NCBI GenBank assembly: GCA_964016885.1
Contig: CAXHJY010000702.1
Location: 124,001 to 188,000 of the forward strand
Reading direction: 5' to 3'
DNA: 64,000 nt
DNA from: Eledone cirrhosa
Taxonomy: Eukaryota
The translations under genes and the position numbers were made by a program. How positions within the stretch are numbered: position 1 is the stretch's first letter; each line of letters opens with the position of its first letter. Below the pieces are notes generated by a model. That model worked only from the letters and a program-made list of their open reading frames with translations, ran no database searches and was not told the DNA's origin. This document shows, one piece after another, positions 24,217-64,000 of the stretch.

Positions 24217-24649
24217 TTGGTAAACGGAATAGAAAATGCTGACAAATTTTTCACAGTTGAAAAATGGTTTAATTAGGAATAAAAGAGTATTAGTAATTGT
24301 ATGGGTTAGTATTCAGTTGTGGTTTTAAGTTTTTAAGTTTTTACCGGTTGCGCATTTCTAAATGCTTTTCAAAAATAATTTTGAGATAGAGTGTCCGTGT
24401 TGTTTGCTCTGATCTGATTAGTTTTGGGAATTCTACCACTTTTTATGTTAAAAAAGTGGCTCCAGCGCTAGTTTGGTGTTGCAAAAATTCTTGTGGTCAA
24501 AACAATTTTGATTGGTCGGTAGAGGTCATGTGAATGTAAACAATTGATTTTGCGCCAAGACTGTTTTTATGTTAAAAAAGTGGCTCCAGCACTACTTGGT
24601 GTTTGCAAAAATTCTTGTGGTCAAAACAATTTTCTATTCCGTTTACCAA
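24217..24649 (-). mobile_element. Short PLE-like element with 21-bp terminal inverted repeat and ~70-bp internal duplication
   Basis: TTGGTAAACGGAATAGAAAAT and its reverse complement, TA on both sides; hammerhead-like motif at 24338-24375. Confidence 0.65.
24338..24375 (-). ncRNA. Hammerhead motif, U3:A8 variant with GAAA>GCAA mutation
   Basis: ttt TTGAAAA GCATTT ag AAATGC GCAA CCGG TA aaa. Confidence 0.55.
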
Positions 24650-24772
24650 TATATAATAACTTGTGTGTTACACCTCTATTCTTTTAACTATATATATATA
24701 TATATATAGAGAGAGAGAGAGAGAGCGAGAGAGAGATGTGAGAAAAACCACAGACCCTCCATCTCAACTCAC

Positions 24773-24808
24773 CTTTTGAAAAGCAGAAGAACTGCGAAAC
24801 CGGTAAAG
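24773..24808 (+). ncRNA. Minimal type I hammerhead ribozyme, U3:A8 variant
   Basis: ctt TTGAAAA GCAG aagaa CTGC GAAA CCGG TA aag; palindromic stem III. Confidence 0.7.
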
Positions 24809-25199
24809 AAACCAAATAAATATATATATTTTTAAAAAAAATAAGACTCCAGTTGCATTTTCGATTTCATCTCTTTTTCTTTATACTTTCACTCGTGTAG
24901 GACACCTCGGTTATTTTTCATTTTGTAAAAAAAACCTCACTTTCTAATATAGATATATATATATAGATATATATATATAGATATATACATATATATAGAT
25001 ATATATATATATATACATATATATATATATATATATATATATATATATACATATATATATATATATATACATGGAAAGTTATATTTAAATTGTTGGGTTA
25101 ACAACGAGTAAATATTTATAACTGATATAAAAGCACTCAAGTATTTGGAGTATATTTATGATATTAAATAAATGGAAACTATATTTATAAAACCATATT

Positions 25200-25265
25200 T
25201 ATTTCATTATATATATTTCAGGGATATCATATTAACAATATGTTATGCCTTCATCAGACAAAATA
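25200..25265 (-). ncRNA. Type I hammerhead ribozyme (mirror copy)
   Basis: Exact reverse complement of 25497-25562. Confidence 0.75.
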
Positions 25266-25496
25266 CAATATAAACAGTCTTATAAATAAATAGATATGAC
25301 ATACCTTTCAATCGACTTGCATTTGGGAAGTTGATTTGGCAGTAAAAAATATTGTGGACAGTTGTAAAAAGAAAGAGAGAAAGAAAGAAAGAAAGAAAAA
25401 CTGTCCACAATATTTTTTACTGCCAAATCAACTTCCCAAATGCAAGTCGATTGAAAGGTATGTCATATCTATTTATTTATAAGACTGTTTATATTG

Positions 25497-25562
25497 TATT
25501 TTGTCTGATGAAGGCATAACATATTGTTAATATGATATCCCTGAAATATATATAATGAAATA
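25497..25562 (+). ncRNA. Type I hammerhead ribozyme
   Basis: tattttgt CTGATGA aggcataacatatt gtt aatatgatatccct GAAA TATATA TA atgaaata. Confidence 0.75.
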
Positions 25563-25604
25563 AATATGGTTTTATAAATATAGTTTCCATTTATTTAATA
25601 TCAT

Positions 25605-60083: not shown

Positions 60084-61424
60084 ATAACTTTGAATAATTT
60101 TGAAATGTTTTGGCCAGTATTGGCCCAGGCCATGTCTAACTTAATAGCACCACCTGGCAAAGTCTTTCAATTCAGGATTTGGGCACCATGGCTCATTTGA
60201 GAAGAGAATTACTGTTTGTGGAGACATATCCGGGTGTGGGTGGTTTGTCCGGGATTACTTGGAGGAATTTGTCCAAAGTCTTCTTGTATTTTGTCTGGTC
60301 AGTTTCTGTTTTGACGTGTCCTGGTGTGATGTTGAAGAGAGCAGGGCCAATTGAGGTGAAATAATTGTGCCGTATGTTGTTATGAGTTGCGATTTATATT
60401 TTTGTTTGGGACGGATAGCACGGGGCCCAAGCCTTGGGTGTATTTTGAAGGTGATGCCAACATCATTTGGGCAGTGCTGATGGAACATTTTCCACATGAT
60501 GCAGATAATATAATGCTCACGGCGACGTTGGAGTGAGTAAAGTTTCAGCTTTTCTAGTCGACTCCTGTAGTCAAGGTCTGACATGCCATCTATCTTTTTC
60601 GTGATTGCCCTTTGGGGAGCTTCAAGTTTCATGATACTTTGTTTCGTGTGGGGAGACCACAGTGGACACCAGTATTCAAGGTGTGGTCGGGCAAAAGTGG
60701 AGAAGAGAAGGATAATGGTGTGGGAATCTCTCGAATGGAAGGTTCTGAGGATCCAGGAACACATTCTGCGGGCCATGTCAACTTTGCTGCTTATATCCGT
60801 GGCCCAGCTTATGTTGCTGTCCACGGTTACTCCCAAGTCTCTGATGTTGTTAGATGCCACGAGAGTTTCACCGGAGGGAAGGGAGTACGGGAGTTTCAGA
60901 GCATCCTCTTTTCCAAAGTGGATCAGTTCGAATTTGTCTTTGTTCAGTAACATGTTGTTCTTTTCCGCCCATTGGGTAACAGCCAGTAGGTCTGACTGAA
61001 GGCTTATCCGGTCATCCACGCCATTGATGACCTTTTCGAGCTTGGAATCATCAGCGAAAATTCTAATGTTGCTGTGTTTGATGATGTCAGTGACGTCATT
61101 AATATAGATGATGAAGAGAAGTGGGCCCAACACAGTGCTTTGTGGGACCCCACTACTGACTTTGGCTGGGATGGATTTGACTCCATCGACTACAACATGT
61201 TGGGTTCTGTTTGACAGGAAGCTCTTGATCCACTGCAGCAGCTTTCCAGTGACACCAATATTGGACAGCTTTCTGAGTAGAATGTTGTGATCAACCCTGT
61301 CAAAGGCCTTGCTGAAATCAAGGTAGATAACATCAGTGTTGGAACCCTCTCCCAAGGCTCTCAAAATGTCATCAAAGTGATGCAGTAGCTGCGTCAGGTA
61401 ATCTCTTCCATTACGGAATCCATG
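60084..61424 (-). mobile_element. 5'-truncated copy of the CR1-group LINE at 10164-15168
   Basis: High identity to 10164-11512; frameshift near the C-terminus; TA on both sides. Confidence 0.95.
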
Positions 61425-61574
61425 TATGTATATATATGTATATATATATGTATATATATATGTATATATATATGTATATATATATGTATATGTATATATA
61501 TATATATGTATGTATGTATGTATATATATATGTATGTATATATATGTATATATATATATATATATTATTTATAT

Positions 61575-62234
61575 ATATAAACAAGGTTTAGTAAATAATG
61601 AAAAAGTTTCAAAATAAATTTTTAAAAATTGACTTTACCTACTATAGTTACCTTTACCGATCGGTTTCAAATCCCAAAAATAAAACGGAGACCATACGGC
61701 CTTCGTTGCAAAGAAAGATTCTCGTCAGAAGGTTCTTTTCATTCAAAGAATATAAAATTCCTGAATTTAAATCACAAACTAGCGCTATCAAAAACTGTTC
61801 CTGGGATGAGAGTGGATGATGTAGAACAGGTTTATCAAGGGCCGTAGCAAAGATAGAGGCAAAAGGAGGTAGGTCAAACTAGCCACCGCTATTGCTAGCA
61901 GCACTCGGAATGACCCGGTTTGTTCTCAACGTTAGTGGAGGTAGTAGTAATATGAAATACGTCCCTTCACGCACAAGGCGCCAAGGTACGCATGTATTGT
62001 CCAACCAAGTGCCAATGTGGTTTGGGATTTGAAACCGATCGGTAAAGGTAACTATAGTAGGTAAAGTCAATTTTTAAAAATTTATTTTGAAACTTTTTCA
62101 TTATTTACTAAACCTTGTTTATATTTGTTCTGGCTCGTTAATTTATTAACCCGCCATTGAACCACATTGGCACTTGGTTGGACAATGCATGCGTACCTTG
62201 GCGCCTTGTGCGTGAAGGGACGTATTTCATATTA
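61575..62234. mobile_element. TA-flanked PLE-like element with two interlocking inverted repeats
   Basis: 61575-61678 / 62021-62124 and 61948-62022 / 62160-62234. Confidence 0.8.
61650..61733 (-). ncRNA. Type I hammerhead ribozyme with enlarged stem II
   Basis: acctt CTGACGA gaatctt...gggattt GAAA CCGATCGG TA aaggt. Confidence 0.8.
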
Positions 62235-63128
62235 TTATTTATATATATGTAGATATATGTATATATGTATATATATGTATATATATGTATATGTATATGT
62301 ATATATATATATATATATGTATATATATATATATGTATATATATATATATGTATATATATGTATATATGTATATATACGTATATATATATGTATATATAT
62401 GTATATATATGTATATATGTATATATATGTATATATATGTATATATATGTATATATATGTATATATATGTATGTATATATGTGTATATATGTATATATAT
62501 GTATGTATATATGTATATATATATGTATATATATATATATATATATGTGTATATATATGTGTAGGAGGTGAGTTTTATTGTAGTACAATAAAGCAATGCA
62601 GATATCCCTTTCATCTAACTCATCTCAATATTTCCTTACTTAAATAACCTGTTATTCCTTTTAATAATACATATCAACATTTTCTTAACATCGCACATAT
62701 TATTAAACCTTAAATATTATTATTCTCAATACATATTAACATTTTCTTATTCATCGCACATATTATCAAACCCCTCAATATACAAACCTTAACTTTACAT
62801 TATTTTTCTCTTCGTTAATTTTCAAATTCTTTTAATTTATACATTATCTTCCAACAGTTTTCAACCTCTCTATGTAAAACAATATATCTTTCTCAGTTAT
62901 AAAAGCTATCTCTCTCTCTCTATCACCCATCTCTCCTCCTATCTCATCCTTCCTCATTATACTCCTCCCTCTCCACTTTTTACTCTCATCTCCTCCTCTT
63001 TTTCACCCCCCCCTCTAAATAAAATATTTTTCCCAATATCACACATCAATCTAAAACTACTTTTCATATGTTGATTTAAAACTGAACTATCCACAAGTGT
63101 TTTTTAACCTTCATATCATATCTTCCTG

Positions 63129-63193
63129 TTTTATCTGATGAAAACAAATATTATTGCATGATGATATTTGTTTTTGAAATGCGCATAATAAAA
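63129..63193 (+). ncRNA. Type I hammerhead ribozyme
   Basis: ttttat CTGATGA aaacaaatattat...atgatatttgttttt GAAA TGCGCA TA ataaaa. Confidence 0.88.
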
Positions 63194-63499
63194 TACATGG
63201 AACGCTTTTAACCATCTTTTGTTCTTATATATTATGTATATATATATGTATATATATATATATATGTATATACATATATATATATATATATATATGTATA
63301 TATATATGTATATATATATATATATATATATATGTATATATATATGTAGGAGGTGAGTTTTATTGTAGTACAATAAAGCAATGCAGATATCGGATAAGAA
63401 GCACTCTACAGTTTGTAGGACTGGAGTATACTTTTCATATGTTGATTTAAAACTGCACTATCCACAAGTGTTTTTTAGCCTTCATATCATGTTCTCCTG

Positions 63500-63567
63500 T
63501 TTTATCTGATGAAAACACAAATATTATTGCATGATGATGTTTTATTTTTGAAATGCGCATAATAAAA
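63500..63567 (+). ncRNA. Type I hammerhead ribozyme, second tandem copy
   Basis: Same core, stem I and stem III; stem II is slightly diverged. Confidence 0.8.
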
Positions 63568-64000
63568 TACATGGAACTCCTTTAACCATCTTTTTATCTT
63601 ATATATGTATATATATATATATATGTATATATATATATGTATATATATATGTATATATATATATATATATATATATATATGTATATATATATATATATAT
63701 ATATCTGTATATATATATATATATATGTATATATATATGTATATATTATCAAGAAAACGAAAAATCAGTGATGTATCTTTACTTAGTTTATTTCGTGTTA
63801 CCAATGTTTCGCCGGCATGTACATTTAAATATATATATATATATATATATATATATATATATATATATATATATTTAAATGTGTAGGGAATGTTTATGTA
63901 CGTATGTGTTCGTATGTGTGTGTGGACATGTGAGTTTAAGTTTGTGTATATATGTGTGTCTATGTATGTATGTGTGTGTATATATATATGTATATATATA

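Follow-up and report, generated by a model that had tools for sequence, protein, structure and literature searches.

What are the short islands that lie among the TA runs of a 64-kb stretch of Eledone cirrhosa DNA and carry hammerhead ribozyme motifs? [quoted passage not shown] We consider it quite probable that the islands are the 5'-truncated 3' ends, made up of a pseudo-long terminal repeat (pseudo-LTR) and a tail and often accompanied by an inverted copy, of about 6 families of Penelope-like retrotransposons (Penelope-like elements, PLEs). This reading is carried by the motifs, their stem III palindromes, paired short and long ends, and the high copy number of 2 insertions (E1 and E2 below), all of them directly observed. 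The scope is this 1 window.

Hammerhead motifs and island anatomy

The search used a type I hammerhead descriptor that is blind to TA, with a strict threshold at a score of >=11. Strict hammerheads were identified at 7 places, 24776(+), 25257(-), 25505(+), 32000(+), 61728(-), 63135(+), and 63506(+), against a mean of 0.28 (maximum 2) in 60 local dinucleotide shuffles, and these matches follow the core order C3-U4-G5-A6-N7-G8-A9 (or U3/A8), GAAA, and U16-H17 in 5 of the 7 islands named by an initial annotation. That annotation had also described stem III as usually palindromic, which is borne out: a search without a stem III rule found a perfect palindrome (A15.1 to U16.1) in 6 of 8 matches, where 200 shuffles gave a mean of 0.005 (maximum 1), and the 6 palindromic matches represent 4 distinct sequence families, with predicted self-duplex energies of -3.2 to -16.6 kcal/mol. 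The type I hammerhead motifs of the strict matches are real. The islands resolve into 8 insertions, as follows.

24218..24628, minus strand: E1 (island 24217), body ending at the short 3' end; hammerhead core 24372-24342
24629..24688, plus strand: inverted 3' piece of E1, 22 nt of the end and a 38-nt tail into TA
24737..24946, plus strand: E2 (island 24737), sister subfamily of E1; hammerhead 24776-24805 (U3-A8, GAAA); long end at 24946
25070..25597 (arms 25165-25597), no single strand: E3 (island 25070), head-to-head pair, the left arm exceeding the right by 95 nt; hammerheads 25257(-) and 25505(+)
26899..27294, no single strand: E4 (island 26900), head-to-head pair with arms 88.5% alike, the left exceeding the right by 39 nt; decayed hammerheads 27071(-) and 27154(+)
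31818..32250, plus strand: E5 (island 31819), hammerhead 32000-32059, in which stem I has 8 bp, stem II is weak, and stem III is not palindromic
61580..62020, minus strand: left arm of E6 (island 61575), whole hammerhead 61728-61655; short end into TA
62021..62235, plus strand: right arm of E6, with its start in stem II; 99 nt that match the left arm exactly, followed by a tail of 115 nt into TA
62561..63225, plus strand: E7a (island 62561), hammerhead 63135-63187; 46-nt starting piece common to E7b
63346..63599, plus strand: E7b, second copy of the E7 family; hammerhead 63506-63561; 5' piece of about 58 nt

The statement that all 7 islands contain a type I core thus needs qualifying, with 5 passing strictly, a variant core at 24217, and a decayed one at 26900. 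The E1 core combines U3-A8 with C13 (UUGAAAA / GCAA), has the stem III palindrome ACCGGU, and passes the relaxed search only, and the decay in E4 consists of AAAA in place of GAAA in one arm and a broken stem II in the other. Nor are the islands wholly unrelated in sequence, as had been proposed, since E1 and E2 are 76% alike over 66 nt (E 1e-7), with two compensatory changes in the alignment (stem I pair 3 and stem II pair 4), and island 62561 consists of 2 copies of 1 family, 92.8% alike. None of the islands is protein-coding, in agreement with the earlier description.

In the sense of the ribozyme, most insertions present two outward-facing 3' ends of one element, one short and one tailed. 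Head-to-head arms, which had been proposed for several islands, are found at 25070, 26900, and 61575; at 61575 only one arm has the whole ribozyme, and a short inverted piece is present at 24217. An inverted arm is clear in 4 of the 8 insertions (E1, E3, E4, and E6) and probable in 2 more (E7a and E7b), the 5' starting pieces of which are likely inverted tails. Comparison of the arms gives one-end-only tails of 38 nt in E1, 39 nt in E4, 95 nt in E3, and 115 nt in E6; contigs give 61 nt for E2, and an overlap of about 10 nt suggests about 58 nt for E7. The distance from ribozyme to end is similar within each family, and between the predicted cleavage site and the terminal TA run there are 47-194 nt; the core had first been placed about 40-180 nt before the end. 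For E2, the automatic distance of 15 nt refers to an internal TA run, and the true end, judged by sequence, is 141 nt away. The left arm of E6 has its own order, first the end of the tail of an upstream unit (62020-61948), next a body of about 220 nt, and finally the ribozyme, implying a period of 484 nt. An 18-nt hairpin-like word is common to E1 (24249-24266) and the center of E4 (27106-27123; 17/18, E 0.009) and may be due to chance.

Could the motifs have arisen by chance in DNA rich in AT and palindromes, or through faulty assembly? At low score, the relaxed descriptor gave 12 matches against 6.15 expected, so near expectation that the weak cases fall within chance. Strict matches and palindromes lie far above the shuffles, which refutes chance for the strict matches, and the E1 ribozyme and the E2 3' end were both seen in four independent runs, so that we attach a negligible probability to this explanation. 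The 4 weak cases of the initial annotation are unconvincing as hammerhead islands.

45800..45935, minus strand: decayed first core half and a hairpin, with GAAA gone; 82 nt from TA
63747..63828, minus strand: 3' half only of a hammerhead-like motif, between two TA runs
30048-30482, strand not given: inverted repeat of 33-36 nt and a small hairpin, without a hammerhead
3071, strand not given: core halves present; next TA run 1132 nt away

Matches at 51100(-) and 5331(-) were dismissed, having no palindrome and lying within the shuffle rate. Pattern scans of metagenome contigs gave 0 matches.

Copies of E1 and E2 in public sequencing runs

We compared positions 24200-24965, which cover E1 and E2 (2 of the 8 insertions), with reads or contigs of four runs, leaving out 24679-24846 including the E2 ribozyme. 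Matches comprised 6600 contigs in run X1 and 14,469 reads in X15, and two other organisms contributed 40 and 812 contigs; summed contig depth was not taken as copy number. Both E1 and E2 are high-copy, so the possibility that the islands are single-copy, which would have undermined the original proposal, does not hold for these two. Other copies have pure TA at 24209 and 24952, counting only reads that align into the flank, and 53 contigs enter TA after 24885, which places a short end of E2 near 24885 in other copies, 61 nt before its long end.

Depth in X1 peaks at 24356-24407, on the E1 ribozyme, with a roughly 45-fold drop at 24590-24615, by the inversion joint. At that joint, 552 reads continue into the element body, meaning that other copies have the inverted piece in line with the body; therefore the tail belongs to the element, and the E1 joint is not the shared form. 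The inverted ends of island 24217, which resemble terminal inverted repeats, look copy-specific. A dispersed multi-copy family with variable 5' truncation is seen for E1 and the 3' end of E2 only, with a gradient that is non-monotonic. The E1 body is likely 5'-truncated, and for island 24217, the sole island on which the choice could be tried, terminal truncation is supported over a discrete non-autonomous unit. The second depth peak of E1, at 24486-24560, is strongest in run X6, from another organism, and possibly marks a shared promoter module; beside it lies a word that we take to be E2F-like.

These reads also bear on whether the inverted ends might be terminal inverted repeats of DNA transposons resembling miniature inverted-repeat transposable elements (MITEs) with TA target sites, the ribozyme motifs being incidental. 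The inverted ends of 20-22 nt in E1, with TA on both sides, and the long foldbacks of E3 and E4 would suit such elements. The arms, on the other hand, are unequal by one tail, those 552 reads (E1 only) show the inverted piece of E1 colinear with its body, and the ribozyme keeps a similar distance to the end within each family, and we regard a MITE-like origin as very improbable.

The E1 core may be conserved. Within 24283-24439, none of the 18 variant sites listed (40 of 92 rows) falls in the 32 core and stem positions, where 3.7 would be expected (P about 0.013). Rows listed at other positions wholly explain how often G>T (5 places) and A>G (3 places) were counted in X1, and reversion to A13 or C3 therefore amounts to <5% of depth. 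C13 and U3 thus look near-fixed in the E1 subfamily, whereas its sister E2 has A13. Pile-ups of read ends in X15 were rejected as element ends, as they coincide with AATT sites.

TA flanking, the source of the protein, and points against truncated PLE ends

Several observations weigh against truncated PLE ends. Rfam returned no hammerhead family in 22 rows for 24218-25597 or in 50 rows for 61580-63830 at E<=10, nor among the best 150 of 395 matches for the whole window, its output here being TA-repeat and hairpin microRNA noise only. An inverted arm was not found in E2 or E5, and the tails of 61-115 nt are longer than the published 30-40 bp. The read comparison was narrow, covering 2 of the 8 insertions without the E2 ribozyme, and its E1 depth profile is non-monotonic, with a second peak at 24486-24537. 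A comparison of the islands with 150 relatives of a PLE-type coding remnant (below) gave no coding similarity and hence no direct tie to a gene for reverse transcriptase (RT) and endonuclease (EN), an absence that would be expected if the islands are truncated. In E6, a tail is followed directly by a short body and another ribozyme, an order more easily reconciled with a mini-element than with simple truncation. Finally, 9 of 11 (ATC)n LINE tails (at places between 8077 and 59668) also adjoin TA.

The E6 joint raises the alternative that at least some of the families, and perhaps all, are separate retrozyme-like mini-elements, non-autonomous and a few hundred nt long, which borrow PLE protein and never had an ORF nearby. 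Its 484-nt period, joining a tail end to a short body and ribozyme, would agree with this, as would the absence of the coding remnant from every island, the identical 46-nt piece with which E7a and E7b begin, and the publication of both PLE-derived retrozymes and non-autonomous PLEs. Among 63 tandem-repeat rows, however, there is no head-to-tail ribozyme array; copies of E1 do not share a sharp 5' edge, and 552 reads lack its joint; the sequence between the pieces common to E7a and E7b is not the same in the two; and the E6 joint, which might reflect either a mini-element or one template jump, is known from one copy only. We judge this alternative improbable.

The LINE tails bear on a different question, whether the islands are indeed PLE ends but their TA flanks reflect a general hotspot, or survival in harmless TA-rich DNA, rather than targeting by their own endonuclease. 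The ends of elements resembling short interspersed nuclear elements (SINEs) and MITEs adjoin TA as well, so that the niche is common to other repeats and own-endonuclease targeting stays a matter of inference. The LINE copies with (ATC)n tails are presumably RTE-like; their count omits 10 of 15 minus-strand rows, which were short runs without tail context, and it replaces a wider count (24 of 29 repeat boundaries in TA) that was partly circular because the boundaries came from a masked comparison. In contrast, all 6 strict insertions end <=200 nt from TA, where random positions have TA within 200 nt downstream in 15% of cases window-wide and 34-38% in two dense regions; TA also stands at the ends of other E1 and E2 copies, and in vitro cutting of AT-rich DNA by a PLE protein has been reported (PMC11167929). 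The proposed adjacency to TA stands above background without being specific to the islands. Priming on (TA)n is plausible, and a general hotspot has, in our estimate, a considerable chance of being right while remaining the less favored account.

Other repeats in the window also lie in or beside TA. A seemingly intact LINE within TA arrays (10260-14452, minus strand) has a 1045-amino-acid (aa) endonuclease-RT frame (Pfam) and, upstream, a 394-aa frame that contains an extended poly-Q stretch as well as two Cys/His repeats; a truncated copy of the LINE at 60087-61424 is 96% identical. A MITE-like element in TA (27320-28620) has 122-nt inverted ends and internal repeats, with a third copy of the end at 29173-29294. 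Repeat copies at 23716-23979 and 47859-48118 are 95% identical and both begin at the same base directly after a TA run, and a recurrent non-TA insert of about 50 nt, seen via translations only, lies within two separate TA arrays (approximately 9570-9620, 15570-15625, and 15805-15860). A 692-nt unit in TA (26171-26862), with identical 87-nt direct repeats at both ends and a 605-nt period, shares a 15-nt word with E1 (E 0.009); no hammerhead was found in this unit, which could be a ribozyme-free element of pseudo-LTR type. A 256-nt foldback at 53971-54226 is 89% complementary and has no hammerhead match.

The coding remnant lies outside the named islands, with no sequence link to them.

52765..53140, plus strand: decayed GIY-YIG endonuclease remnant of the type with RT and C-terminal GIY-YIG (Penelope-like); stop and frameshift

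Pfam did not call the remnant, and a word-index protein search with it gave 9 candidates, none of them passing. A full HMMER scan gave 460 matches; all 10 of those scanned fit the GIY-YIG profile, most near the Pfam cut-off, and 4 long ones also have an upstream RT. A Cys-rich linker of Neptune type was identified in 3 of the 6 relatives listed, and its CX2-5CxxC pattern, decayed in the remnant, in 42 of 150. The remnant shows that PLEs were at some time active in this genome, without tying them to the islands. The driver was likely of Neptune type, as suggested by the TA bias and this unlinked remnant. About 360 nt past the remnant, at approximately 53500-53525, lies a GAAA half-core with a partial stem I.

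Under the reading of the islands as truncated PLE ends, all enzymatic steps are inferred from published PLE work. A full-length PLE copy elsewhere would supply the RT/GIY-YIG protein, which would nick AT-rich DNA, and reverse transcription would begin at either of two sites downstream of the ribozyme, giving a short or a tailed end. One complementary DNA (cDNA) would start from each side of the break, and an early stop of both followed by joining at microhomology would leave a head-to-head pair. Because the cDNAs span the cleavage site, they would have been copied from RNA that was uncleaved or had been re-ligated. Cleavage is predicted for the dimeric ribozyme only, and insertion probably does not depend on the ribozyme. 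An older model, self-priming on an antisense template, would likewise give head-to-head pairs (PMC3846280). A bolder version, which we think rather unlikely, is that a very high-copy family with a fixed U3-A8 and C13 core still cleaves as a dimer and that at least 1 family (E6) is a 484-nt ORF-less mini-Penelope that spreads when priming starts on the two sides of a break within self-complementary (TA)n.

Significance and comparison with known systems

The initial annotation had placed the islands with PLEs as either non-autonomous or terminally truncated elements; the assignment is supported, with the truncated branch favored at 24217, and the system itself is already described in the literature. 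The layout, the dual opposite-strand hammerheads, the U3-A8 cores, and the TA bias have all been published for PLEs, so that the families are new and the kind is known, and knowledge of the class is unchanged by these islands. Possible novelties are the near-fixed A13C core and a putative 484-nt mini-element. A narrow literature search did not find a C13 (A13C) hammerhead core, which earlier work may already list; the accessible part of PMC3088659 gives natural core variants including U3-A8 and does not mention C13. If active, a C13 core would widen the natural hammerhead consensus. About 3.6 kb of the window is likely PLE-derived without an ORF or Rfam match, and the PLE DNA in such genomes may exceed what ORF- or Rfam-based scans report. 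In a survey of octopus repeats, 31 Penelope-like families are given as recently active, and the main text of that survey, as far as available, does not mention ribozymes (PMC13282606). The pairs of short and long ends may serve as natural read-outs of the two RT start sites seen in vitro.

Metazoan PLEs carry minimal type I hammerheads, including U3-A8 cores and dual motifs 100-700 bp apart on opposite strands, in many unrelated families per genome that are chiefly single truncated copies (PMC4209133). The islands resemble these in their short stem I, palindromic stem III, U3-A8 variant, diversity of families, and dual opposite-strand motifs; they differ in the additional C13 of the E1 subfamily, which the available text of that source does not mention, and in stem III palindromes of up to 10 nt.

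Among PLEs with an endonuclease (EN+), pseudo-LTRs in inverted, head-to-head orientation, one end of which has a tail, are described in PMC3846280 and PMC8557442, the latter also reporting an inverted copy, a one-sided tail, TA bias, and non-autonomous PLEs. The islands share with the Neptune clade the inverted 5'-truncated copy, the one-end tail, head-to-head as the most frequent arrangement, the ribozyme near the 3' end, and the microsatellite bias, and relatives of the remnant share its C-terminal GIY-YIG with a Cys-rich linker. They differ in having no ORF and in some tails exceeding 30-40 bp, and the clade is not set by RT phylogeny. Naiad PLEs (PMC8557442) are alike in (TA)n bias, inverted copy, and tail, but as described in the available text they are without canonical hammerheads, which the islands have.

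Non-LTR retrozymes, described as PLE derivatives (PMC7229834; bioRxiv 10.64898/2026.07.22.740005), are likewise non-coding, carry a type I hammerhead, and are related to PLE pseudo-LTRs, and E6 may be one. In contrast, the island pairs are inverted, and the window holds no head-to-tail arrays (63 tandem rows), only the partial tandem joint in E6. The accessible parts of PMC6765202 and PMC12602865 add nothing further to these comparisons.

The nearest biochemical parallel is the Poseidon element PAc of Anolis, the protein of which cuts and extends both strands in vitro and prefers AT-rich DNA, with two RT start sites bounding the tail and ribozyme cleavage not required (PMC11167929). The islands share with PAc the two 3' ends set apart by a tail, the AT-rich targets, and insertion across the ribozyme site; PAc belongs to another clade and host, and it is known from biochemistry, whereas the islands are known from sequence.

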